From: a virus
Strand: one strand, 5' to 3'
Length of the DNA stretch: 64,000 bases
IMG/VR virus record: IMGVR_UViG_3300009506_000009
Span: 34,894 to 98,893 of that record
Within the stretch, counting starts at the first letter, position 1, and each line of letters opens with the position of its first letter. This document shows positions 1-30,664 of this stretch, one piece after another. A program made the translations under genes and the position numbers. The notes below the pieces were generated by a model, which worked only from the letters and a program-made list of their open reading frames with translations, ran no database searches and was not told where the DNA came from.

Positions 1-244
1 CTAGACCCCTTCCGAATTGAGTGACCTGGACAGTGGACCTACTTTTGATTGATGAAGGAGATTACAATGTACTTTATCTTTAATCTAAAAGCAACTAGTG
101 GTACTGCACACTATATTAAATGTGAAACCAGACAGGACCTTGAAGATCAGGTTGAATGGGCAATGAATCGAGAAGTTGCCTTCTTTGTTTCCCCTGATCT
201 TGAAACCGTTCGCAGGGTTGCGGGTGTTGAATTAGAAGAGTTTT

Positions 245-451
245 AGATTGACCAGAGAACTCGTCGCTGTACGGCAGTGCCGTATAGAGGAACTTCAGGA
301 CTCCACTGCTAGAGGAAGGAGGCTAACGCCGATTGCACTTCCGAGGGAGCAAGCCAAACAGACCTAGCTGGAAAGCAGGGCAATGATGGTCGGGTTGGTG
401 CATAGGTAGATGACGAGATAGAACAGAATCCTGGGTAAGCTCAGTCAATCT
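245..451 (+). ncRNA. rnpB: RNase P RNA, minimal form (catalytic domain, ~35-nt residual S-domain, no P18)
   Basis: P1 AGATTGAC/GTCAATCT (245-252/444-451); P2 CTCGTCG/TGACGAG; P3 hairpin 267-287; CR-I GAGGAACTTCAGGACTCC; P5 CTCC/GGAG followed by CAAGCCAAA; P15/P16 with GGGT loop; CR-V AACAGAATCCTGGGTAA pairs CR-I to form P4 with bulged U. Confidence 0.9.
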
Positions 452-456
452 TTCAC

Positions 457-528
457 TGACATGTGGTATAATGGTATTATGTCCGGCTGTTAACCGGAAC
501 GATGTAGGTTCGAATCCTACCGTGTCAG
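457..528 (+). tRNA. tRNA-Asn(GTT)
   Basis: Cloverleaf; anticodon arm TCCGG-CTGTTAA-CCGGA; T-loop TTCGAAT; followed by CCT. Confidence 0.95.
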
Positions 529-543
529 CCTTTAGGAGGAACC

Positions 544-894
544 ATGGCGAAAGATCGAAACATCAGAAAGAAGACCCGCTTCAACCCATACAAGAGTTGG
601 GAAGGCGACTGTGAGAGCTTCTCAGATGCTAGTCGTCGCCAGTTTGCCGAAGAACAAGTGGACCCCCCACGCAATAGACATATTAGAAAAAAGAAGAAAC
701 TGATCTTCATTATGGCTACAGCCTATGGTACCCCAAAGTGGTACATGCCAAAGGGTGCCTGGAGAATAGGCAAGTATGAGAAGATGCGGGATGCTGAAAA
801 GGCTCTGGAGACCATGCAGAATAAACGCTGGCCTGGAGACTTCTACGAATTGAGAATCGAAGACAGGAGACCTGAGAGTGAAAAGACTGCGTAG
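544..894 (+). CDS. hypothetical basic protein
   Basis: ORF with AGGAGG RBS. Confidence 0.6.
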   Translation: MAKDRNIRKKTRFNPYKSWEGDCESFSDASRRQFAEEQVDPPRNRHIRKKKKLIFIMATAYGTPKWYMPKGAWRIGKYEKMRDAEKALETMQNKRWPGDFYELRIEDRRPESEKTA

Positions 895-1927
895 CTTTTT
901 AATTGGGATTGTAATCGGGCTGATCGTTGTGTATCTACTTTCATCCTGTAAGCCAGAAGAAGAGATCAAATCTATCCCACAGACTCTACCAAGGCAGTAC
1001 CAAGTAATCCTTCCATTAGCGATGAAGAATTATAGAGTTCCTACTATCGTTGCTGTTGAAGCAGAGACTCCTGCTGATCCCAATCAATACCTATGGATGG
1101 GGGATATTCTAAAAGTGTCATGTGGTGCTGAGAATACTGAACGGTATGGTATGTCGTACTGTACTGACAAGGTTAAAGGGTTCCCGGATGGAACACACAT
1201 CTGGTTACAGTTAAAGCAGGGACACTCCTGGTGGGTTACTCCAGCATGTAGACCTATACCAGAGAAGTATTGGGATGCCTGGGTTGAGCAGTTTGCTCTT
1301 GTTGTGATCCAGGAAATGGAAGACATTCTTGGTCCAGATGCAGTTTGGTATCTGTCGTATACAAATGAACCAGATACTTCTTTTGCAGGTTTGGGTGAGT
1401 GGCTCGGGTGTTGGGGTGAGACCTTTGAAGAAGGTCAATATTATGCTCAGTTCGCAAATCATGTAATCCCACAAATCCGGGCACGATATCCACATATTAG
1501 GCATGTTGTAGGTGAGTTTATTAATTATGGGTTGCCTTTTGCAGAGGGTGTAGCATCAACAATTACAGAGGCTGATGTTATCTCTTTTCATAGTTATAGT
1601 GGATGTGGCTGGAGCACAACAGGACTTGTTGAGCGTAAGATAGCTTGGTTCACAGAAAACTTTCCTGGTTTTCCCTTAGCTTTATCTGAGACAGGAATGA
1701 CCTATGATACCCCATCGGATGAATGTGATCTTCAGCAAGCAGAGTATGTAAAGTTTGTAACCAGCGATATTGATGTAGAAGCAGTGGGTTTATATACAGG
1801 CTGGCCTAACGGTTGGAAAAATACAGACTTGACAAGGTTTGATAAAGATGGTAAAATTGAACTTAAGCCGTCATATTTTGTTTACGAGTCACTACAGATA
1901 TCCAAGGGATGGGAACCTTGGAGATAA
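878..1927 (+). CDS. lipoprotein with clan GH-A glycoside hydrolase-like domain
   Basis: Signal peptide ending LLSSC; TNEPD acid/base motif, FHSY, LSETG nucleophile motif; VILPLAMKN motif. Confidence 0.65.
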   Translation: MKRLRSFLIGIVIGLIVVYLLSSCKPEEEIKSIPQTLPRQYQVILPLAMKNYRVPTIVAVEAETPADPNQYLWMGDILKVSCGAENTERYGMSYCTDKVKGFPDGTHIWLQLKQGHSWWVTPACRPIPEKYWDAWVEQFALVVIQEMEDILGPDAVWYLSYTNEPDTSFAGLGEWLGCWGETFEEGQYYAQFANHVIPQIRARYPHIRHVVGEFINYGLPFAEGVASTITEADVISFHSYSGCGWSTTGLVERKIAWFTENFPGFPLALSETGMTYDTPSDECDLQQAEYVKFVTSDIDVEAVGLYTGWPNGWKNTDLTRFDKDGKIELKPSYFVYESLQISKGWEPWR

Positions 1928-1932
1928 ATAAT

Positions 1933-2004
1933 TGCCCTGTCGTACAACTGGCAGTATGCCTGACTCTGACTCAGGTGATCTAGGTTCAAATCCTAGCGGG
2001 GCGG
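1933..2004 (+). tRNA. tRNA-Gln(CTG)
   Basis: Anticodon arm CCTGA-CTCTGAC-TCAGG; T-loop TTCAAAT. Confidence 0.93.
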
Positions 2005-2007
2005 CTA

Positions 2008-2134
2008 GTGTATATAAGGTTCGTTACTAAGACGTATGCAGTGGAAGGTTGTTGGAGTTGCGTCCAAGAGGAAGCCTTTATCCGGGCACGTCGGGATACG
2101 GCATTCCACAAACCTCACTTCGAAGTATATACAC
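2008..2134 (+). ncRNA. putative structured RNA of unknown class
   Basis: Closing stem GTGTATATA/TATATACAC, nested AGGTT/AACCT and GTGGAA/TTCCAC, internal hairpins; no ORF. Confidence 0.5.
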
Positions 2135-2136
2135 AA

Positions 2137-2233
2137 ACAGGCTAATAAAGGCAAGTCTCGATTGAGACAGGAACTGTATGGTAGCCACTACACACCGTAG
2201 ACCCGGAGACTCCCTCACCTTGCCTTGGCCTGT
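2137..2233 (+). ncRNA. putative structured RNA of unknown class
   Basis: Closing stems ACAGGCT/GGCCTGT and AAGGCAA/TTGCCTT; ends 7 nt before tRNA-His. Confidence 0.45.
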
Positions 2234-2240
2234 ATAACAT

Positions 2241-2314
2241 GGAGCCTATAGTATAACGGTTCAACATTCCTGACTGTGGATCAGGAGATACGGGTTCGAA
2301 TCCCGTTAGGCTCC
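2241..2314 (+). tRNA. tRNA-His(GTG), G-1 encoded
   Basis: Anticodon arm CCTGA-CTGTGGA-TCAGG; G-1:C73 pair. Confidence 0.95.
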
Positions 2315-2499
2315 CAAGGAGTTACAATGAGTAAATATCAGATCGAAGAAAACCCAGGTGATCTGCCTACAGTATTGATGGTTGGTACCTTTAGCATTGA
2401 TCAGCTTCAAGAGATTATTGCTGAGATGGAAGACTTGTATGCTTCCCAGGATACTGACTTTACTGATGAGATTGTTTCTCAGATGATGGAGGATCGCTA

Positions 2500-2910
2500 A
2501 TGGCAGTTCTCGTAGGCAAGAATGCTGTAATCACCATTGACAACTCCAAACCGTTTTATACCACTGAGTTTGACTTGACGCCTATCAAGTATGTCAAAGA
2601 TGCTCTTCCAGAAGTTAGCATCACTGCTAATTTTGATGGTCTTGGTCCTTCATTAGACCTGTTCAGTTATGCTCAATACCATACAACCACGTTGTATTAC
2701 GAGACTGGAACATATTGGTTCTGCCACCGCAACAAGATGGAAGTATATACACGTGGTATGACAGTACTTGATAATACAGTTAGTATTGACTTCGAAGTTG
2801 TTCCTGGATCAGAAGTTGACCTAACAAACTATAGCTGGATTGCACGCTTCCTACGTTTCGTGTTTCGCCACAAAATGGGAAGAGTGGCAATTGAATACTT
2901 TACGAGGTGA
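2500..2910 (+). CDS. hypothetical protein
   Basis: ORF with GGAGG RBS, coupled to neighbours. Confidence 0.55.
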   Translation: MAVLVGKNAVITIDNSKPFYTTEFDLTPIKYVKDALPEVSITANFDGLGPSLDLFSYAQYHTTTLYYETGTYWFCHRNKMEVYTRGMTVLDNTVSIDFEVVPGSEVDLTNYSWIARFLRFVFRHKMGRVAIEYFTR

Positions 2911-3185
2911 GTATGCCTGTTATCTGGAAGTATGATCTTAGTGAAGTAGAGAGGCTAACGTATGTAGACATTCCAGGTCTGATACAGGTTTTGTCCGTTG
3001 GCACTCAGGATGATCAACCAGTTGTATGGGTTATGTGCCAGCCAAAAGAGCCAACGAAAAGGTACTTATTCTGGTATGCTCAAACAGGCCGTCCGTTTGA
3101 TCCAGACAAAGGTCTAAAGTATATTAATACAACTCAACACATGGGCGGTTTGTATGTAGCTCATTGGTTTTATATGCGGGTGTGA
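2907..3185 (+). CDS. hypothetical phage protein
   Basis: ORF; its last codons overlap tRNA-Gly. Confidence 0.55.
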   Translation: MSMPVIWKYDLSEVERLTYVDIPGLIQVLSVGTQDDQPVVWVMCQPKEPTKRYLFWYAQTGRPFDPDKGLKYINTTQHMGGLYVAHWFYMRV

Positions 3186-3246
3186 TGTAATGGTAACGTG
3201 CCGTCCTTCCAAGTCGGTCTTCGGAGTTCGAGTCTCCGCACCCGCA
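3176..3246 (+). tRNA. tRNA-Gly(TCC)
   Basis: GCGGGTG/CACCCGC acceptor; loop CTTCCAA; discriminator A. Confidence 0.92.
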
Positions 3247-3302
3247 CTTTTCATGTAATGATAATACCCCTTAGGAGGCACTATCACTACACAAAACATC
3301 AT

Positions 3303-3373
3303 GCGGTATTAGTTTAGGGGTAAAACGAGTGCTTGCCAAGTACTAGTCAGCAGTTCAAATCTGCTATACCGCT
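3303..3373 (+). tRNA. tRNA-Gly(GCC)
   Basis: GCGGTAT/ATACCGC acceptor; loop TTGCCAA. Confidence 0.92.
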
Positions 3374-3401
3374 CTGGTAACCATTAGACAGGAGAGAGGA
3401 T

Positions 3402-3674
3402 ATGTCTGAAAAAGTGTTTGTTTTGGTGAGTGAAGAAGGGGATGTGTATGGTGTGTTCAAAGATAAGGAAAATCTTGAATGGGAAATCCTGCGAGCCGCA
3501 ATGGACGGGTATGACCGGGACCCGGAACTACCATCGCCAGAGTTTGCATCCTTCTGTCTGATCCCGAACTACTATTCAGAAAACTCATATGGAGTTTACG
3601 TTGCAGGTATGGGAAAACACCCTGAGCCTTTCCTTTGGGATGTTGTTTATCTAGAAGAGAGCACACTCTATTAA
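3402..3674 (+). CDS. hypothetical protein
   Basis: ORF with GAGG RBS. Confidence 0.55.
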   Translation: MSEKVFVLVSEEGDVYGVFKDKENLEWEILRAAMDGYDRDPELPSPEFASFCLIPNYYSENSYGVYVAGMGKHPEPFLWDVVYLEESTLY

Positions 3675-3675
3675 T

Positions 3676-3747
3676 GCCCTGGTAGTCGAGCGGATAAGAC
3701 GCTACCCTGCGAAGGTAGAAGCGAAGGTTCGAGTCCTTCCTGGGGCA
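3676..3747 (+). tRNA. tRNA-Arg(GCG)
   Basis: Anticodon arm CTACC-CTGCGAA-GGTAG; T-loop TTCGAGT. Confidence 0.92.
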
Positions 3748-3748
3748 C

Positions 3749-3777
3749 TTGACAACTTCCGGCTCGTATGGTAAAAT
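3749..3777 (+). promoter_or_regulatory. sigma70/SigA promoter with extended -10
   Basis: TTGACA-17-(TGG)TAAAAT. Confidence 0.8.
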
Positions 3778-3783
3778 ACTTTT

Positions 3784-3833
3784 GCCGGGTTGGGGAAACT
3801 CTGGAGCGAGTCACTCCACCCCTCCCGGCTCCA
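3784..3833 (+). ncRNA. 50-nt minihelix-like RNA ending in UCCA
   Basis: Starts 7 nt after the -10; GCCGGG/CCCGGC-T-CCA, GGGG/CCCC, TGGAG-7-CTCCA. Confidence 0.45.
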
Positions 3834-3836
3834 CGA

Positions 3837-4085
3837 TATGGCGCAGATACCGAACGGTCAGAGTATTCTTGTATCATCTGTGGTTGGAATGAGATTAGTC
3901 CATCACTAGGATATTCTCCCCTACAAATAGACCATATCAACGGAGATTGGACGGATAACTCTCCAAAAAATCTTAGAGTTATATGTCCTAATTGTCACAG
4001 CCTCACGCCAACATACGGTTCTCAGAATACAACAATAGAGAAAAACGCAAGAGGTAGAGGCTTACAAAGAGAGTACAAGGGGTAA
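3837..4085 (+). pseudogene. HNH endonuclease, probably N-terminally truncated
   Basis: CIICGW...LQIDHINGDWTDNSPKNLRVICPNCHS; the ORF-track ATG (3768) lies inside the promoter and no RBS is evident. Confidence 0.7.
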
Positions 4086-4148
4086 GAGCCATATGGAGAG
4101 GCTACGGTCTGCAAAACCGTTTAAGGAGTTCGATTCTCCATTACCCCT
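4079..4148 (+). tRNA. tRNA-Cys(GCA)
   Basis: Anticodon arm ACGGT-CTGCAAA-ACCGT; U73. Confidence 0.9.
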
Positions 4149-4725
4149 CTGGAGAAACTATGTGGTTAAACTTAAAGCTCTGGTTAGAAGAATGGTGGAT
4201 ACTAATGTATAATTGGTATCGCTTAAAGAAGATCAACTACTTGATGTGGAAGCTTGATCGTCTAATGAAAAAGCATATTGTGGTTGAAGGTGACTTTAAA
4301 GTGAGTGAAGAACAGGAGAGTAGTAATGAGTCGAAGCAATAAAGAAATCAAACGGTTGGTGTCTGATGCGGCCTTGATAGTTGCTGGAATGGTTTTGTTT
4401 GTGTATGGTTTTGTGTCCAAAGACCCGTATGTGGCTTTTGGCGGGGCTGTTTGTTTTATTGTGGGGTTAATATAGTGTGCCTATATCGACTCCCACTTGC
4501 GTCTCTAGGAGTTTAGTAATGGCAGGAGAAAATATAGAACTAGGGTTGACGTGCATTAACGATGAGTTTCAGGATGCAGATGCGGTTGCCTTTGAAGACG
4601 ATCATGGTTTGCTTATTAGCTTATCCCACGATACGTACATCCGAATTGAGCCACAGGTGTTCCCAAAGCTGATCGCACTGATGGCAGAAACAATGGATGG
4701 GATGGTAGCCTTTTAATAATCGTAT

Positions 4726-4812
4726 GGAGTCGTGACAGAGTACGGTAATGTGCCCGGTTGCTACCCGGAGACCATGGGAAACCATGCGGAGGTTCAAATC
4801 CCCCCGGCTCCG
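4726..4812 (+). tRNA. tRNA-Ser(GCT)
   Basis: Loop TTGCTAC; long variable arm CATGG-GAAA-CCATG; G73. Confidence 0.92.
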
Positions 4813-5000
4813 CTGATGATTGTAGTATGAAGATGTTCGAAACTAACATAAGGAAAATCATGTTTTACTTTAACACTCAGAGCTTATCCATAGCTAAATC
4901 CCAATTGCCACTACTTGTGGAGTTTTTGGTTTGAGTGGATAAGTCTCGATTGATACAATGATTGGACCACCCAGGCCGGATGGTCTTTTTATTTGGAACC

Positions 5001-5029
5001 TTGACAACTGAATAGTAATGTGGTAAACT
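5001..5029 (+). promoter_or_regulatory. sigma70 promoter
   Basis: TTGACA-17-(TGG)TAAACT. Confidence 0.8.
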
Positions 5030-5035
5030 ATACTC

Positions 5036-5128
5036 GTGACGAAAAACAAACTCTTTCTCATTATTGCAATCTGCATCTTTCTAGGTCTCAGCCTGCTAGG
5101 TGCAATCTCATATCTGATGTTTTCTTAG
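5036..5128 (+). CDS. 30-aa single-TM peptide, leaderless
   Basis: GTG 6 nt after the -10; MTKNKLFLIIAICIFLGLSLLGAISYLMFS. Confidence 0.45.
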   Translation: MTKNKLFLIIAICIFLGLSLLGAISYLMFS

Positions 5129-5138
5129 CAATAATATT

Positions 5139-5211
5139 GGAGGCGTAGCGCAAAGGTTAGAGCACCCGTCTCATAAACGGTAGGTTGAGAGTTCGATTCT
5201 CTCCGCCTCCA
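5139..5211 (+). tRNA. tRNA-Met or Ile2 (CAT)
   Basis: Loop CTCATAA; G1-C72 paired, so not an initiator. Confidence 0.9.
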
Positions 5212-5222
5212 CAGGAGTTCTT

Positions 5223-5735
5223 ATGATCATTGGATGTGTATATAGGCTAGAAGCAAGTGGTGATGTGAATGGTATCCCGCTGTTTCTGTATGATAACGGA
5301 AGTACCGTGGATGTCCGTGGTTTCCCTAACATAACGTCTGACGACATGAAGTTCGTGCTCTCATGGGCGTCCAAACCAACGGATGATGATATAGAGATCG
5401 TGTGGAAAAATATCTCAGCACCATACTTTTTGCACCTGTTCCGTGATCAGTATGTATCTGAGGTCCCAATTCAATACGTGCATATTGGTATCTTCAAACA
5501 TCTGGCGTACAAGTATCCGCCAGCAATGGTACAGCACGATGTCACCAGCCAATTAAAATCCCTTGATGCATATTGGTCAAACGTGGCACGGCAGGTTGCT
5601 GGACTAACTAACTTACAACAGTGGACCATGCTTGAGCTTCGTGACCTGAAATATACACCGGAGCAGATTGCTAATGAGCTTGGGATCGATGAAGCTGTTG
5701 TGATCGAGTACTTCAAAACAAACATATTGGTATAG
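5223..5735 (+). CDS. protein with C-terminal HTH (sigma region 4-like)
   Basis: LTNLQQWTMLELRDLKYTPEQIANELGIDEAVV. Confidence 0.55.
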   Translation: MIIGCVYRLEASGDVNGIPLFLYDNGSTVDVRGFPNITSDDMKFVLSWASKPTDDDIEIVWKNISAPYFLHLFRDQYVSEVPIQYVHIGIFKHLAYKYPPAMVQHDVTSQLKSLDAYWSNVARQVAGLTNLQQWTMLELRDLKYTPEQIANELGIDEAVVIEYFKTNILV

Positions 5736-5736
5736 A

Positions 5737-5810
5737 GCCGTCATAGTTTAATGGATAAAACAGACGCCTTTTAAGCGATCAGACTGAGGGTTCGAGTCCT
5801 TCTGGCGGCA
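5737..5810 (+). tRNA. tRNA-Lys(TTT)
   Basis: Loop CTTTTAA; T-loop TTCGAGT. Confidence 0.9.
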
Positions 5811-5831
5811 TAAAAACTATGGAAATCATAA

Positions 5832-6113
5832 ATGCACATTGACAAGTTCAACAGCTACGTGCGTATTCTAAGCACACGTTTTTGGGTAAGACATTGGTAC
5901 AACTTCTATGATGTGCCCCTGTTTACTGACCACAAGCGCACTATGGCGATCAGCCTAATTGACCTTGTTGATCGTAAGAATATGTTTGAAGAAGTCTGTC
6001 GGGACTTAAAGAAAGCCGGGTTTGATGTCCGAGTAAAGCTGGATGCAACTAGCCCCTACCCATATGCGGAGTTGGTTGCGTTTGTAGAAAGAACAGATTG
6101 GCCTATAGTGTAA
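5832..6113 (+). CDS. hypothetical protein
   Basis: ORF; 3' end overlaps tRNA-Gln. Confidence 0.5.
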   Translation: MHIDKFNSYVRILSTRFWVRHWYNFYDVPLFTDHKRTMAISLIDLVDRKNMFEEVCRDLKKAGFDVRVKLDATSPYPYAELVAFVERTDWPIV

Positions 6114-6170
6114 TGGTTATCACGTCTGCCTTTGAAGCAGAAGACCCAGGTTCGAACCCTGGTGGGCCAG
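6099..6170 (+). tRNA. tRNA-Gln(TTG)
   Basis: Anticodon arm TCTGC-CTTTGAA-GCAGA. Confidence 0.93.
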
Positions 6171-6200
6171 CTAACCTATCAATGAGTGAAGGAGATTAAA

Positions 6201-6728
6201 ATGATTAACCCAAATCAAGGAAGCGGTGTGAAAATCCAGATTAACAGTTTAGCGGCATTAGAACGTCTGCTCGGTGATGATGCGAAAATGGAGATCGAAG
6301 TTCGGCAGTCTGTTGTAGAAGCTTTTGCTCGTGGTTTTGTAAAGAACATTGCGAATGCTGATGCTGTTGCTAAGGTTATCGAAGACCTTAAAGACTTTGT
6401 GAAACGGGAAGTTGTGGAAGAGACATCTAACCAGATGGCAATGGCTGGTATTGTCAAGGATGGGTCCTGGTATCAGACGAAGTTGAAACTTACCGATACT
6501 GCTGAAGAGAAGATCGCATCGGAAGTACGTATACAAGTGTATGATAATATACGTAAAGCAATCAGCGAAATGAATATTGATGAGATTGTAACCCGTTATG
6601 TTACGGATGCTATCCGTCGTGAAGTCAACCATCAGGTCAAGGCTATCACCCAATCCACTGTTATGGCATCCCTACAGTTGGCAATGGATCAAGCCTTAGA
6701 TACTGACCCGGTAGATAATGAAGATTAA
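6201..6728 (+). CDS. hypothetical helical protein
   Basis: ORF with AAGGAG RBS before ATG 6201. Confidence 0.6.
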   Translation: MINPNQGSGVKIQINSLAALERLLGDDAKMEIEVRQSVVEAFARGFVKNIANADAVAKVIEDLKDFVKREVVEETSNQMAMAGIVKDGSWYQTKLKLTDTAEEKIASEVRIQVYDNIRKAISEMNIDEIVTRYVTDAIRREVNHQVKAITQSTVMASLQLAMDQALDTDPVDNED

Positions 6729-6852
6729 ACTTACGCTTTACAATGATGATGGTCAGCCTGTTGCATCTGCTACTCTGAAGTCCGGGGTAGTGGATGCCAA
6801 CGGTAATATCTTGACAGAAGAAGCCCTACGAAGTATGGTAGGTAGTATAAAT

Positions 6853-6934
6853 ACCAGCGTGGCGGAACTGGTTTACGCAGAGGACTTAAAACCCTCCGAC
6901 TCCGGTCATGTGGGTTCGACTCCCACCGCTGGTA
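6853..6934 (+). tRNA. tRNA-Leu(TAA)
   Basis: Loop CTTAAAA; variable arm; ACCAGCG/CGCTGGT acceptor. Confidence 0.92.
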
Positions 6935-6946
6935 CAAAGGATTAGC

Positions 6947-7378
6947 ATGGACATTCTCGAAGTGCAGTATGGTATCATCGTCCATCAGGTAAACTTACAA
7001 GGTAAGATGGGTGCTGGTCTTGCAAAGCAAGTCAAAGAAACGTACCCACTCAATTATGAGAAATACCTGGAAGATTATCATGTACGTGTCCTTGGGGATG
7101 TCTTGGTTGTGACTGTAAAAAAGAACCTTCACATTGCTAACCTGTATGGACAAGAGAGCGTTGGTGCAGGTCTCCAAACAGATTATACCGCTATAGCAAC
7201 AGGTCTCGACTTGATTGCTCATTGGTCTGAGCATGCACAGCTTCCTGTATATATTCCAGAGAAGATGGGATGCGGCCTCGGTGGTGGAAACTGGAATGCA
7301 ATCAAAGCGATTATTAAAGATACAATTCCGTATGCCTGGATCGTTTCTTTAGAAAGGTCTACACCGTATAGATTATGA
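6947..7378 (+). CDS. macrodomain (ADP-ribose processing) protein
   Basis: HQVNLQGKMGAGLAKQVKETYP and KMGCGLGGGNW motifs. Confidence 0.85.
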   Translation: MDILEVQYGIIVHQVNLQGKMGAGLAKQVKETYPLNYEKYLEDYHVRVLGDVLVVTVKKNLHIANLYGQESVGAGLQTDYTAIATGLDLIAHWSEHAQLPVYIPEKMGCGLGGGNWNAIKAIIKDTIPYAWIVSLERSTPYRL

Positions 7379-7845
7379 CTCCTATACCACAACCTGCTAA
7401 CTTGTCGTACATTGTAGGTTCTCACTTTAACCATATTGAAGTATGTACTGCATTCCCACGCACACGAGAAGATATCTCCAGGATGTCTTGTGGTCACATT
7501 TCGGTAGAGAGTGTAACGTATGATGATAGGCCAGATGGCACAGTTATGTGGGTAAAACCTGGAACAGCAGGAGATATTATTAGAAGCGGTACTGTTACAT
7601 ACTTTGCAATCTGTGACAGTCACAGTACACCTATCCTGGTAAATACATTCACACAGAAGTTTCAATTGCAGGAAGGTTGCATCTTTACATTGGCTCCGTT
7701 TGATGTTACTTTGGCTCCAACAGATGTAGTGGTAGGCACGTATCCATACAACGATTCGGGCCTAAACGAAATAGAGTGCATCTACTGTGGACAACCAAGG
7801 CGTCCAAATATACCGTGCCCACATTGTGGTGGGCGCATAGACTAG
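7375..7845 (+). CDS. hypothetical protein with C-terminal Zn ribbon
   Basis: CIYCG...CPHCGG. Confidence 0.5.
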   Translation: MTPIPQPANLSYIVGSHFNHIEVCTAFPRTREDISRMSCGHISVESVTYDDRPDGTVMWVKPGTAGDIIRSGTVTYFAICDSHSTPILVNTFTQKFQLQEGCIFTLAPFDVTLAPTDVVVGTYPYNDSGLNEIECIYCGQPRRPNIPCPHCGGRID

Positions 7846-7926
7846 CCAGCATGGTGGAATTGGCAGACACAGTGTCCTCAAAAGGCACCGGGTAAAACCG
7901 TGAGAGTTCGACTCTCTCTGCTGGCA
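7845..7926 (+). tRNA. tRNA-Leu(CAA)
   Basis: Anticodon arm GTGTC-CTCAAAA-GGCAC; variable arm. Confidence 0.93.
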
Positions 7927-8820
7927 CAAAGGATCAACATGCTTCCAACACAGATTTATGATCTTGAGATTGACGTACAAGGGGTCTTCACCATGACAGG
8001 CAACTCCCCTATCCCTATTGTGGTTGGTCATATTTTCATTACATCTACTGGTATGATTGTTCGCATTACTGAGGTTGAGATAGATTTTGACACAAGAAAG
8101 ATTATGTGTAAAGCAATGTCCAACCTAATCACGTTTACAGAAATTGAAAATGGTTCAGCCTATAACTGATAAGAGAGTAGAGTGGTACTATATTTACCTA
8201 CCAGAATTAGGAACCAACCCATTAACCATATCCCTGTTATCCCGAAGAGCCGTCCCAGGATTGTTCCTAGGTTTTGATAACAGGGTTTATTTGTATTCAG
8301 AGGTTGTAGATATTAGTAACCCGCACCATCCATACATCGTATGTACACATGTTGATGGTGATCTAAAATATTTAAATGTGGAGGCCACACGTGCGAGTCA
8401 TTTACAAAGGACGGGTGATCGGGGAGTGCCCCGACGAACACAGATCAGGAGAAACTGTGCAATTAGCTGGATCGGATTACGTAATTTTATACGTAGACAA
8501 GCTAAACGATTTAGTAGCTATAGTTCAAAAGGTAGAGTGATAAATGAAGAAAGCACCTGCATACTGTTATGGAACTAGAGATGGGACCTATCTTGTTATC
8601 CGGGATTGGGGGCACGCTAGGATTGTTCCTGCTGAGGAGGCGTTGGATGGGAGGCATATTCTTCTTGTATATACCGCACTTGGGACTGCGAAGAAGGCCC
8701 TATCCTCCAGAGTAATATATCCTTTTTATCAAGACGGTAACCGTTGGCATTATAAGAATGACGGCAGTACGCCGTTGGTAACAAAGGAGCTACTTGTGAT
8801 CTTACCTCTAAAACTGACCC

Positions 8821-8849
8821 TTGACATCGAAGATTGACTGTGGTAAAAT
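8821..8849 (+). promoter_or_regulatory. sigma70 promoter
   Basis: TTGACA-17-(TGG)TAAAAT upstream of ssb. Confidence 0.8.
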
Positions 8850-8899
8850 AGTGTTGCTGTCGAAAAAATTCTAACAACTAATTAATAAGGAGCAAACAA

Positions 8900-9316
8900 A
8901 TGTCAGCACAGAATCAACTCACTTTACTTGGAAACGTTGGAGGTGAAAACACAATCCGTCAGTCTACAAACGACGAGGGTAAAGTTACCGTTATCTCGTT
9001 TTCTTTTGCTGTTAATGAGTGGAGGTACAACAAAGCTACCAACCAGAAAGAACGCATGACCGACTTCCATAACGCTCAGGCGTTCGGTTACGTGGCTGGT
9101 CGCTTGGCCCAGTTCGTTGAGCAAGGCCAAGGTCTGTTACTTCAAGGGCGACTATACAAAGACCAATACACCAACAGTGAAGGCGAACAGCGCACCGCTT
9201 ATGGTATCGAGGTCGAGGACTTCGCTCTAGTTGGTGGTGGTGGACGTGGTGCCTCACAAGATGCTGAAGAGTCGGATGCCTCATCTGGATTGGAAGAGGA
9301 TGAGTTCCCGTTCTAA
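8900..9316 (+). CDS. ssb: single-stranded DNA-binding protein
   Basis: NQLTLLGNVG OB-fold start; acidic tail EEDEFPF. Confidence 0.93.
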   Translation: MSAQNQLTLLGNVGGENTIRQSTNDEGKVTVISFSFAVNEWRYNKATNQKERMTDFHNAQAFGYVAGRLAQFVEQGQGLLLQGRLYKDQYTNSEGEQRTAYGIEVEDFALVGGGGRGASQDAEESDASSGLEEDEFPF

Positions 9317-14623: not shown

Positions 14624-15814
14624 ATGGCAGACCTTTATATCCCAGGCAACCCATCAATAGATGAGGCAATAGAATACTTCGGCGCAGAAGCAATGAAGCA
14701 GGTCCAGACCCTGGTCTCTCGACCAGAGTTTACTCATGTGCGCCTAATGCGGGATGGTCACCTTGGCTATCAGTCTATGCCAATCGGTGGGGTAACTGTA
14801 TCACATCGATATATTGCTCCTGGTGGGGCAGGGTTTGATATTGGGTGTGGTAATTGGGCTGGTAAAACAGAAGTTCATATGTCTTACTTAACCAGAGGTG
14901 ACCTGTATGAATTGGGGATCGAAATCTCTAAGAAGATTGCTATTGGTCTTGGTCAGGCTTATGGTACGTTCGCTGACCACCCACTGCTTCCAGACATCAT
15001 CCATGCAGTTAAGGATGCTCATATCAATATCACACCTGAAGTTATCATTAACCAGTTTGGTTCCGTTGGTGCAGGCAACCACTATATTGACCTGATGACA
15101 GACTCCGAAGGATATATCTGGATCGCTCTTCACTATGGCTCCCGTAAGCTTGGGCATACCATTGCTGATCACTACCTTAAGATGCTTGGAGCTAATGACG
15201 GTATGTTCTCGATGCCTGTATTCCTGGATACATGGTCGATGGTTGGTCAAGAGTACCTACGCCTTATGGAGCTTGCAGGTGAGTATGCTAGAGTATCACG
15301 CCGCTTGGTAGGTACAAAGATTGCTACGCAAATCCTTCAAGACACTGTGGTTGATGTAGTAGAGAACCACCACAACTACATCTGGCAGGAAGTACATCAT
15401 GGTGAAGCTGTCTATGTTACCCGCAAGGGTGCAACTCCCGTTCACCCAGGTGTACGTGCTTTCATCGGTGGCTCCATGGGTACGGACTCAATTATTGTGG
15501 AAGCAATTGACTGTGACGAAAACAACAAGACATTCCGCTCGGCTATGCATGGTGCTGGACGTACTATCAGCCGTGGTATGGCAAAGGGTAAGTTTACACG
15601 CAGTGGAGAAATGAAGCGTGCTCCACTAGTAACAAAGGAAATGATGAACGGCTGGATGAATACGGAAGGGATCATTCGGATTGGTGGTGGGGTTGACGAG
15701 TCACCACACTGCTACCGTAACTTGATCGAAGATGTGCTTCCTTATTACCCGCACCTTAAGGTTAAGGAAATCCTATCTCCAGTCGTAGTTATCATGAACC
15801 CTGATGAGCATTAA
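14624..15814 (+). CDS. rtcB: RtcB RNA ligase
   Basis: DGHLG, GFDIGCG, GAGNHY, LHYGSR, HHN, RKGAT, HGAGR, DESP motifs. Confidence 0.95.
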   Translation: MADLYIPGNPSIDEAIEYFGAEAMKQVQTLVSRPEFTHVRLMRDGHLGYQSMPIGGVTVSHRYIAPGGAGFDIGCGNWAGKTEVHMSYLTRGDLYELGIEISKKIAIGLGQAYGTFADHPLLPDIIHAVKDAHINITPEVIINQFGSVGAGNHYIDLMTDSEGYIWIALHYGSRKLGHTIADHYLKMLGANDGMFSMPVFLDTWSMVGQEYLRLMELAGEYARVSRRLVGTKIATQILQDTVVDVVENHHNYIWQEVHHGEAVYVTRKGATPVHPGVRAFIGGSMGTDSIIVEAIDCDENNKTFRSAMHGAGRTISRGMAKGKFTRSGEMKRAPLVTKEMMNGWMNTEGIIRIGGGVDESPHCYRNLIEDVLPYYPHLKVKEILSPVVVIMNPDEH

Positions 15815-29275: not shown

Positions 29276-30664
29276 ATGCACTGGATACAAACCCCACAAG
29301 CAATACGTGACTTCGCCCTTATGCTCAGCATCGCTTTCGGTGCTGAGACCTGGGTGGTTGGGGGCGCATGCCGGGATACAGTCCTGGGTGACACCCCACA
29401 TGACATCGACATCGAGATCACTGGGTTGAGTGAGTACAACTTGACCCACTTGCCCTTCGCTCAGGTAATACCTGGGGGTGATCGGTTCGGTGTTTGGATT
29501 GTGACCTTCCACGATGAGACCTTCGAAGTGGCACTGCCACAAACCCGTGAGCGTGTGGGTGATGGTCACTCAGGCGAGATCGCACACATCGACCCGAACC
29601 TGCCCATTGAGCAGAGCTTAGCACGCCGAGACTTCACGGCTAACGCCATCGCCTGGAATGTGCTGACCGAAGAGATCGTTGATCCCTTCGACGGGATTGA
29701 TGACATCCACACTGGCATCTTACGGGCAGTGAATGCAGGCAACTTCGCTGATGACCCACTGAGAGTACTACGTGGTGTGCAGTTAGCATCACGCACTGGG
29801 CTGGTCCCTGATTGCCCAACGGTATCCGCCGCACAAGCACAGATCGGCGGGTTCAGTGCCCTGAGTTCGGATCGTGTGCGCCAGGAGTGGGTGAAGTGGG
29901 CGCAAGGTTCAACCCCTGCACTGGGCATCAAGTTCCTGGTCGAGTGTGGTTGGATCGAGTGCTTCCCATCGCTGAATGCCTTACGTGAGACGGAGCAGGA
30001 CCCCATCTGGCATCCCGAAGGGGACGCCTTGACCCACACAATCTTTGCCCTGGAAGTCCAGCCAAGCTGTGACCCCATCATCAACTGGGCAATCCTACTG
30101 CACGACATTGCCAAGCCACACTGCACGGCTACTCGTGAAGATGGACGCATCATCAGCCCCGGTCATGACCAACTGGGTGCGGACATGATCCCGGATGTAC
30201 TACGTGAGTTCGGGTTCGAGATACACGGACGCATCCCGGAGTGGGTGCAGGCAGTGCAGGCCATCGTTCGGGAGCACATGTGGGCGGCAAGCCTGAGTGG
30301 TGCACCTGGACACCGTGGTGTACGACGCTTAGCACGACGCTTAGCACCTGCCACTGTTCGTCAGTGGGGTGCTGTCTGCTTAGCAGATGTGGGTGGTCGA
30401 GCAATTGCTCGGAGTGAGAGAAACTCACTGATTGACACCATCCTGGATGTAGCCGAAGACGCTACCAGCCTGGGCATCGTAGATGACGGGCCTGCCAAGA
30501 TCGTCACGGGCAAGTTGCTGATCGAGCATGACATCATCGAGCCTGGAATTGCCATGGGCAAGCTGATCGACCTGCTGTTTGAGCTACAGCTAGACGGATG
30601 GTTCACGGACGAAGAGATCGGGCTACAGTTTGCACGTGAGTTAGTCGAGAACGTGCAGTTATGA
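29276..30664 (+). CDS. cca: class II tRNA nucleotidyltransferase (CCA-adding) with HD domain
   Basis: VVGGACRD, DIDIE, EVALPQTRE, RRDFTANA, DPLRVLRG, HPEGDALTHT, LLHDIAK. Confidence 0.92.
   Translation: MHWIQTPQAIRDFALMLSIAFGAETWVVGGACRDTVLGDTPHDIDIEITGLSEYNLTHLPFAQVIPGGDRFGVWIVTFHDETFEVALPQTRERVGDGHSGEIAHIDPNLPIEQSLARRDFTANAIAWNVLTEEIVDPFDGIDDIHTGILRAVNAGNFADDPLRVLRGVQLASRTGLVPDCPTVSAAQAQIGGFSALSSDRVRQEWVKWAQGSTPALGIKFLVECGWIECFPSLNALRETEQDPIWHPEGDALTHTIFALEVQPSCDPIINWAILLHDIAKPHCTATREDGRIISPGHDQLGADMIPDVLREFGFEIHGRIPEWVQAVQAIVREHMWAASLSGAPGHRGVRRLARRLAPATVRQWGAVCLADVGGRAIARSERNSLIDTILDVAEDATSLGIVDDGPAKIVTGKLLIEHDIIEPGIAMGKLIDLLFELQLDGWFTDEEIGLQFARELVENVQL

Follow-up and report, generated by a model that had tools for sequence, protein, structure and literature searches.

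Can a virus carry its own version of RNase P RNA, one of the two universal ribozymes, in a form that has lost nearly all of its specificity domain (S-domain), and what would such an RNA do during infection? The question is raised by a 207-nt stretch inside a viral tRNA array. The window analysed here is a 64,000-nt stretch of a 98.9-kb virus record, and the candidate mini RNase P RNA gene occupies window positions 245-451 on the forward (+) strand, from the 5′ strand of helix P1 to its 3′ strand. The original prediction, made from the sequence alone, described a phage-encoded RNase P ribozyme minimised independently of the archaeal forms. Its assumption of a viral origin agrees with the gene content of the window, which encodes a tape measure protein, PolA, ribonucleotide reductase, an RtcB ligase (14624-15814) and a CCA-adding enzyme (PolyA_pol head plus HD domain; 29276-30664), and with the record itself, which is an IMG/VR virus.

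Match to the bacterial RNase P RNA model

At gathering thresholds, Rfam called only tRNAs over the 64-kb window and did not call an RNase P RNA. In E-value mode, cmscan of positions 150-560 gave a global match to the bacterial class A model (RF00010) at 247-453, covering model positions 1-367 with 42.9 bits and an E-value of 3.3e-12; the E-value of the same match was 1.9e-13 when the entire record was searched. RF00010 was the top match for the window RNA within clan CL00002, and a profile of the family described below matched it with 144 bits (nhmmer). The RF00010 score is less than half of the gathering threshold of 100 bits because about 140 S-domain positions and P18 are missing, while the alignment spans P1, P2, P3, CR-I, P5, J5/15, P15-P17, CR-IV and CR-V. 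The folding energy of the RNA was no better than that of shuffled sequence (z = -0.94). Thermodynamics is thus uninformative here, and the case for the RNA rests on homology and covariation.

Helices and conserved regions of the catalytic domain

Each helix of the window RNA was verified against the sequence letters and mapped onto MAFFT alignments that had been built without structural information. These alignments comprised 14 and 18 sequences, the latter including the window itself and relatives that are 49-74% identical to it. All features below lie on the + strand. The predicted boundaries coincide exactly with P1 (245-252/444-451), which continues inwards at 255-257/440-442; the inner pairs covary, and the outer pairs are poorly aligned by MAFFT. 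P2 (260-265/412-417) is 97-100% paired, with covariation in all six pairs. It is followed by the P3 hairpin (267-275/279-287), a 9-bp stem with the loop AGU in which 80-88% of cells are paired and seven pairs change on both sides. CR-I (287-300) carries the motif GAGGAA..UC, five of whose eight specified positions are invariant and three at least 90% conserved across the 18 relatives.

The central helix P4 is formed by 292-294 plus 296-300 (A292 C293 U294 and C296-A300) with 429-436. It is a pseudoknot with a bulged U (U295) placed between the universal nucleotides of CR-I and CR-V, is 98.6-100% paired and covaries in six of its eight pairs. The prediction had singled out C293-G435 as a swap relative to a usual G-C pair. 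The two nucleotides do form a genuine P4 pair, but the reference state was wrong: the RF00010 consensus at this place is A-U, and G-C is the commonest pair at 293/435 only inside the phage family (12 of 18 sequences).

P5 (301-304/346-349; 90-93% paired, covarying) encloses J5/7, the 5′ strand of P6 and the remnant of the S-domain. P6 is a CUGC/GCAG pseudoknot (306-309/375-378) that is paired in 80-82% of cells, and all four of its pairs change on both sides. J5/15 starts at 350 and reads CAA. P15 (353-355/397-399) and P16 (361-364/388-391) are both 100% paired, and P17 (367-369/379-381) is 91% paired, with the 3′ strand of P6 (375-378) held in its loop. L15 is GGGUU (392-396), within which and around which the motif CGGGU.GG is invariant. 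In the cmscan alignment CR-IV occupies 404-411, with invariant columns AG....AU, and J2/4 leads into CR-V (423-437), which includes the P4 3′ strand and has the invariant columns AC...A....G..UA. The universal positions of CR-I (G.AA..UC), CR-IV, CR-V and the L15 GGU are therefore all invariant or at least 90% conserved, and the periphery of a type A catalytic domain (C-domain) is present as P15-P16-P17, the L15 GGU and the P6 pseudoknot. Everything that had been noted from the letters (P1, P2, P3, P4 with its bulged U, P5, the P15/P16 GGU loop and CR-I, CR-IV and CR-V) was located in the sequence; the P6 pseudoknot and P17 come in addition.

Covariation across relatives

In the 14-sequence alignment, 85.5% of the cells in the mapped helices were paired, as against 62% with shuffled partners and 30-42% with slid partners. 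Changes on both sides were found in 48 of 60 pairs, and none of 500 shuffles attained even one of the observed values. Pairing in the 18-sequence alignment was 98.6% for P4, 97.2% for P2, 90% for P5, 100% for P15/P16, 91% for P17 and 82% for P6. The nested part of the Rfam model includes neither P4 nor P6, so covariation in these two helices is evidence independent of the covariance-model match. The absence of any such match together with a lack of covariation in P4 and P2 had been named beforehand as evidence against the assignment; what was found is a global RF00010 match and dense compensatory changes.

Comparative analysis thus shows the window RNA to be under purifying selection for a predicted complete catalytic-domain fold, comprising P1-P5, P15-P17, the P4 and P6 pseudoknots, CR-I, CR-IV and CR-V, the bulged U and the L15 GGU. 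As far as sequence comparison can establish it, positions 245-451 are almost certainly a genuine, selected homologue of RNase P RNA.

What remains of the specificity domain

The near-complete loss of the S-domain with CR-II/III was correctly anticipated: in the cmscan alignment about 140 model positions are reduced to 37 nt. In place of P7-P14 and the CR-II/CR-III T-loop binding site there are just P7 and one hairpin, 29 nt in all (314-342). P7 (314-318/338-342, GGAAG/CUUCC) is followed by GA and then by a P8-like hairpin of 3 bp with the loop UAAC (321-330), from which a 7-nt joiner (GAUUGCA) leads back to the P7 3′ strand. The arrangement P7-(G/A)A-hairpin-G..A-P7′ recurs in 20 of 28 distinct relatives, and its stems covary. 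The hairpin occupies the place of bacterial P8, directly after the 5′ strand of P7, and UAAC is the consensus P8 loop sequence of RF00010.

In type A RNAs, L8 touches P4 and L18 touches P8 (PMC8457005). Given the first of these contacts, the P8-like stub was probably kept as a brace, its loop buttressing the catalytic helix P4. The window RNA lacks P18, the helix whose GNRA loop docks on P8; P18 had been noted as missing, and the 24 model positions concerned, between 399 and 404, correspond to 0 nt in the cmscan alignment. Among the 18 aligned sequences P18 is present in 13 and absent in five, the window included, and an additional scan yielded 20 further loci without it. The distance from CR-I to P15 summarises the reduction. 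It is 67 nt in the window and 67-93 nt in 16 of the 19 viral copies with a recognisable CR-I (121-133 nt in the other three), as against 161-212 nt in 39 cellular RNAs.

This pattern of retention and loss matches the published biochemistry of C-domain deletions, in which the E. coli C-domain cuts substrate by itself and gains about 190-fold in activity from the C5 protein, P6 pairing matters in a C-domain-only RNA, and P18 becomes dispensable once the S-domain is gone (PMC5839562). The engineered Eco CP RPR/delta-P18 constructs, which cleave substrates and are strongly stimulated by C5, consist of the same parts, namely the C-domain with P6 and an optional P18 (PMC5839562). Those constructs were made by deletion in the laboratory, whereas the phage RNAs occur in nature, have been stable in evolution and still carry the P7-P8 stub.

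Relationship to bacterial type A and archaeal type T RNAs

The window RNA shares with type A RNase P RNA (RF00010; E. coli M1 RNA, encoded by rnpB, 377 nt) the C-domain, an end-to-end alignment, the A's of J5/15 and the UAAC loop of P8. It differs in length (207 nt, whereas type A RNAs have about 350-400 nt), in lacking P9-P14, CR-II/III and P18, in having a P15 that is one base pair shorter (GCAAGCC in place of GCAAGNCC), and in having a viral gene that is not accompanied by a cognate rnpA. The gene was most likely derived from a bacterial type A RNase P RNA.

The archaeal type T RNAs are similar in outline (PMC3579882). Both kinds are about 200 nt long and keep the whole C-domain and P6; in both, P18 is missing, P15 is shortened, and all that is left of the S-domain is short hairpins extending from P7. 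However, type T RNAs have a 3-bp P2 and a 2-nt P5/15 linker (PMC3579882), are archaeal in sequence and use archaeal proteins, whereas P2 has 6 bp and the P5/15 linker 3 nt (CAA) in the window RNA. None of the type T characters (an archaeal best match, the 3-bp P2 and the 2-nt linker) was found in the window RNA. Because its best match is bacterial and the P2 and linker lengths differ, the likeness to type T is to be read as convergence, not membership. Minimisation independent of type T, as had been proposed, is borne out by the class A best match, by the presence of P6, P16, P17 and the L15 GGU, and by the 6-bp P2.

A family of reduced RNAs in viral DNA

Relatives were gathered by four pattern scans of IMG/VR, by the nhmmer profile and by blastn against GenBank phages. 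About 40 related loci were found, on viral contigs, in the cultured Stenotrophomonas phage DLP6 and in a published 735-kb phage genome, the largest in print; most sit on contigs of 50-465 kb. Blastn against GenBank phages returned only DLP6 and the uncultured 735-kb phage genomes LR756501/LR756503, and megablast of window positions 1-9000 against 50,697 GenBank phages gave no match. The DLP6 homologue is an unannotated stretch of 249 nt between genes, immediately 5′ of tRNA-Arg, with an RF00010 score of 54.7 bits. The window carries the family signature exactly (AGCAAGCCAAACAGACC ... GGUCGGGUUGGUGC), together with the P7-P8 stub and the tRNA-array setting. We take the family to belong to viral DNA, usually within or near tRNA arrays. 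A search for the short-P15 signature (GCAAGCCAAAYAG ... GGNCGGGTTGG) found no match in 185,579 cellular genomes, one per bacterial or archaeal species; as a positive control, the general P15-L15 pattern matched more than 120 of the same genomes.

Two larger RNase P RNAs on presumed viral contigs score above the RF00010 cut-off. One (L048:3624-3910) has 287 nt and 174 bits and keeps P7-P12 and CR-II, without P13/P14; the other (L046:2690-2994) has 305 nt and 101 bits. Since both pass the cut-off on such contigs, phages probably carry a range of RNase P RNA sizes, and these two may be intermediates toward the mini form. At two loci (L032:880-1069 and L049:3804-4003), a tRNA ends where P1-P3 should start. 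For the RNAs of L032 and L021 it is the archaeal RNase P model that gives the highest score (31.7 and 51 bits), presumably an effect of the missing P18. The T4 stable RNAs rnaC and rnaD, encoded where that phage's tRNA cluster ends, were considered as relatives or halves of the family and set aside, as they gave no nhmmer or RF00010 signal.

Some copies are interrupted by endonuclease genes. In L015 (8620-9302, - strand), and also in L014, the RNase P RNA gene is split in the P17/L17 region by an ORF for a 136-aa HNH endonuclease. The 5′ piece in L015 ends with a complete P17 hairpin and a run of U's, a terminator-like arrangement, and the 3′ strand of P17 (GGUGUCGGUU) is duplicated downstream of the HNH ORF. 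The split copy may represent either a gene that has been disrupted or a ribozyme that naturally works in two pieces. In L008 (2633-3517, - strand), and also in L019 (contigs of 435 kb and 40 kb), an ORF for a 199-aa GIY-YIG endonuclease follows right after the P4 5′ strand. In L008 it substitutes for 11 nt holding the 5′ strands of P5 and P6 and is thus no clean insertion; L017 is an intact relative without it. Group I introns were considered for the interrupted copies, and Rfam found none at E <= 1.

The family as a whole bears on the view that the window RNA is a decaying, functionless remnant of a captured host rnpB. That view could appeal to the score under the Rfam cut-off, to the deletion of large parts and to the relatives split by endonuclease genes. 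Yet some 40 copies, at 49-74% identity to the window, keep all C-domain helices through compensatory changes, the deletion boundaries and the stub architecture are common to the family, and the signature is missing from the 185,579 cellular genomes. Decay is accordingly scarcely credible as an explanation.

Setting within a tRNA array

The RNA gene is closely packed between its neighbours. The stop codon of a 65-aa ORF (49-246; no Pfam family) lies directly before it, and P1 is followed by a 5-nt tail, UUCAC, from 452 and then by tRNA-Asn(GUU) on the + strand (457-530, from tRNA calls). The window holds 13 tRNA genes (457-7927) and the 15 kb upstream of it 23 more as well as a tmRNA, which places the RNA gene within an array of 36 or more tRNA genes spanning about 21 kb. 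No sigma-70-like promoter was found directly upstream of the RNA gene, which suggests co-transcription with the tRNA array.

Several further observations concern this array. Two divergent tRNA-Asn(GUU) genes (L001:1132-1204 and window 457-530) bracket the 65-aa ORF and the ribozyme. An HNH homing-endonuclease ORF lies among the tRNA genes (window 3768-4085, +) and has homologues in the ribozyme loci L049, L027 and L032. The tmRNA (L172:11786-12073, equivalent to G000:C1:31785-32072), about 2.8 kb upstream of the window and directly 3′ of tRNA-Tyr, is shorter than usual at 288 nt; it scores at the Rfam cut-off (RF00023, 47.7 bits against 47), and ARAGORN predicted a 30-residue tag. It is a second shortened host-type stable RNA in the same array, of another family and another function. 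Theta (HDV-like) ribozymes are likewise phage catalytic RNAs beside phage tRNAs and are implicated in tRNA maturation (PMC10879173). They differ in being small self-cleaving RNAs of an unrelated fold, not trans-acting RNase P (PMC10879173).

The short distance to the next tRNA recurs in the family. Gaps of 2-15 nt (nhmmer envelope) are also seen in DLP6, L017, L022, L008/L019 and L032, and several relatives adjoin an upstream tRNA as well. Such proximity would suit a cis-acting module, in which the tethered ribozyme cuts the leader of the downstream tRNA in the same molecule and so offsets the loss of its substrate-binding domain. However, many members are free-standing genes flanked by promoter-like and terminator-like sequences of their own, as in L013, or lie hundreds of nucleotides from a tRNA (L013, L027, L034, L039). 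In addition, the 5 nt beyond the 11-bp P1 would be unlikely to reach the active site in a type A architecture. Cis-action is for these reasons very improbable as the role of the window RNA.

None of the 13 tRNA genes in the window encodes the 3′-CCA, so the conserved L15 GGU could come into play only once CCA has been added. The T-arms of all 13 are canonical, and the host enzyme should process these tRNAs like any others, which leaves the selective benefit of a phage ribozyme not obvious. Their leaders are A/U-rich, and position -1 is U in seven of the 13.

Protein partner and proposed role

RnpA binds the C-domain, the part of RNase P RNA that the window gene retains. No RnpA (PF00825) was found in the virus record, nor was PF00825 found in five complete or near-complete carrier genomes (465, 390 and 373 kb, LR756501 and DLP6). 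As the phage has no RnpA gene, the partner is assumed to be the RnpA of the host, one of the two partners proposed in the prediction, which also suggested that the RNA may accept hairpins other than tRNAs. A conserved neighbour protein was sought by tblastn of eight window ORFs against all loci, and only the HNH endonuclease recurred. A basic 116-aa ORF (544-894, +) lies immediately after tRNA-Asn. It resembles RnpA in size and charge, with nothing else linking the two, and it matches nothing in Pfam or PHROG and lacks homologues elsewhere among the loci.

The preferred reading, to which we give a probability of roughly two in three, is that of a working catalytic subunit that would act with host RnpA and serve the phage tRNA array. 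The ribozyme would be transcribed together with the surrounding array of at least 36 tRNA genes, and its 3′ end would be freed by an RNase P cut at the 5′ end of the adjoining tRNA-Asn; as P1 ends 5 nt before this tRNA, that cleavage would define the ribozyme 3′ end. It would then assemble with the RnpA of the host and trim the 5′ leaders from phage pre-tRNAs. RNase P capacity would thereby be added or secured during infection by a phage that also has a CCA-adding enzyme, RtcB and a tmRNA.

A more far-reaching version, which we hold as possible and clearly tentative, adds a change of specificity. The S-domain-less virus ribozyme would take host RnpA and read only the leader and acceptor stem, shifting capacity or specificity to phage transcripts, possibly including non-tRNA ones. 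The gene would spread between unrelated phages, and some endonuclease-interrupted copies might work in two pieces.

The lack of a phage RnpA gene can also be turned into an argument for host take-over, with the RNA acting as a hijacker or specificity re-programmer that captures limiting host RnpA and thereby starves M1 RNA or alters substrate choice. The complete retention of the RnpA-binding C-domain and the family-wide loss of the T-loop-reading S-domain would fit, as would the A/U-rich leaders of the window tRNAs with U at -1 in seven of 13. A pure sponge, however, would need neither the bulged U nor the L15 GGU nor the J5/15 nucleotides, and yet these are invariant or nearly so; moreover, a hijacked holoenzyme would still be catalytic, and the proposal for that reason largely coincides with the preferred reading. 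As a separate explanation it appears unlikely.

We consider it equally unlikely that the ribozyme is independent of host RnpA, acting in vivo either as RNA alone or with a phage protein standing in for RnpA as well as for the lost S-domain. The carrier phages range from about 100 to 735 kb and have unrelated hosts, large phages encode many proteins of unknown function, and the basic 116-aa ORF, which belongs to no known family, is found close behind the RNA gene on its downstream side, all of which could be cited for such independence. Against it, no protein gene is conserved beside the RNA, where only the homing HNH endonuclease recurs, the 116-aa ORF is without a homologue at other loci, and protein-free C-domain RNAs need very high salt in vitro (PMC5839562).

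Significance

A literature search for RNase P RNAs of phages or other viruses, which included the papers on Bcheck, on metagenome RNase P and on DLP6 and covered subscription journals poorly, found no earlier report of a virus-encoded RNase P RNA. A natural bacterial-type RNA that is stable in evolution and has no S-domain would give three decades of deletion biochemistry their in vivo equivalent, revealing the minimal working RNase P when protein is present and standing as an independent parallel to archaeal type T. With lengths of about 190-250 nt, the RNAs offer small and varied scaffolds for structural studies and engineering, and because one carrier, Stenotrophomonas phage DLP6, is in culture, the question lends itself to direct experiment. 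For the phages themselves, the finding would mean that a translation toolkit of tRNAs, tmRNA, CCA-adding enzyme and RtcB reaches as far as the maturation of the tRNA 5′ end.
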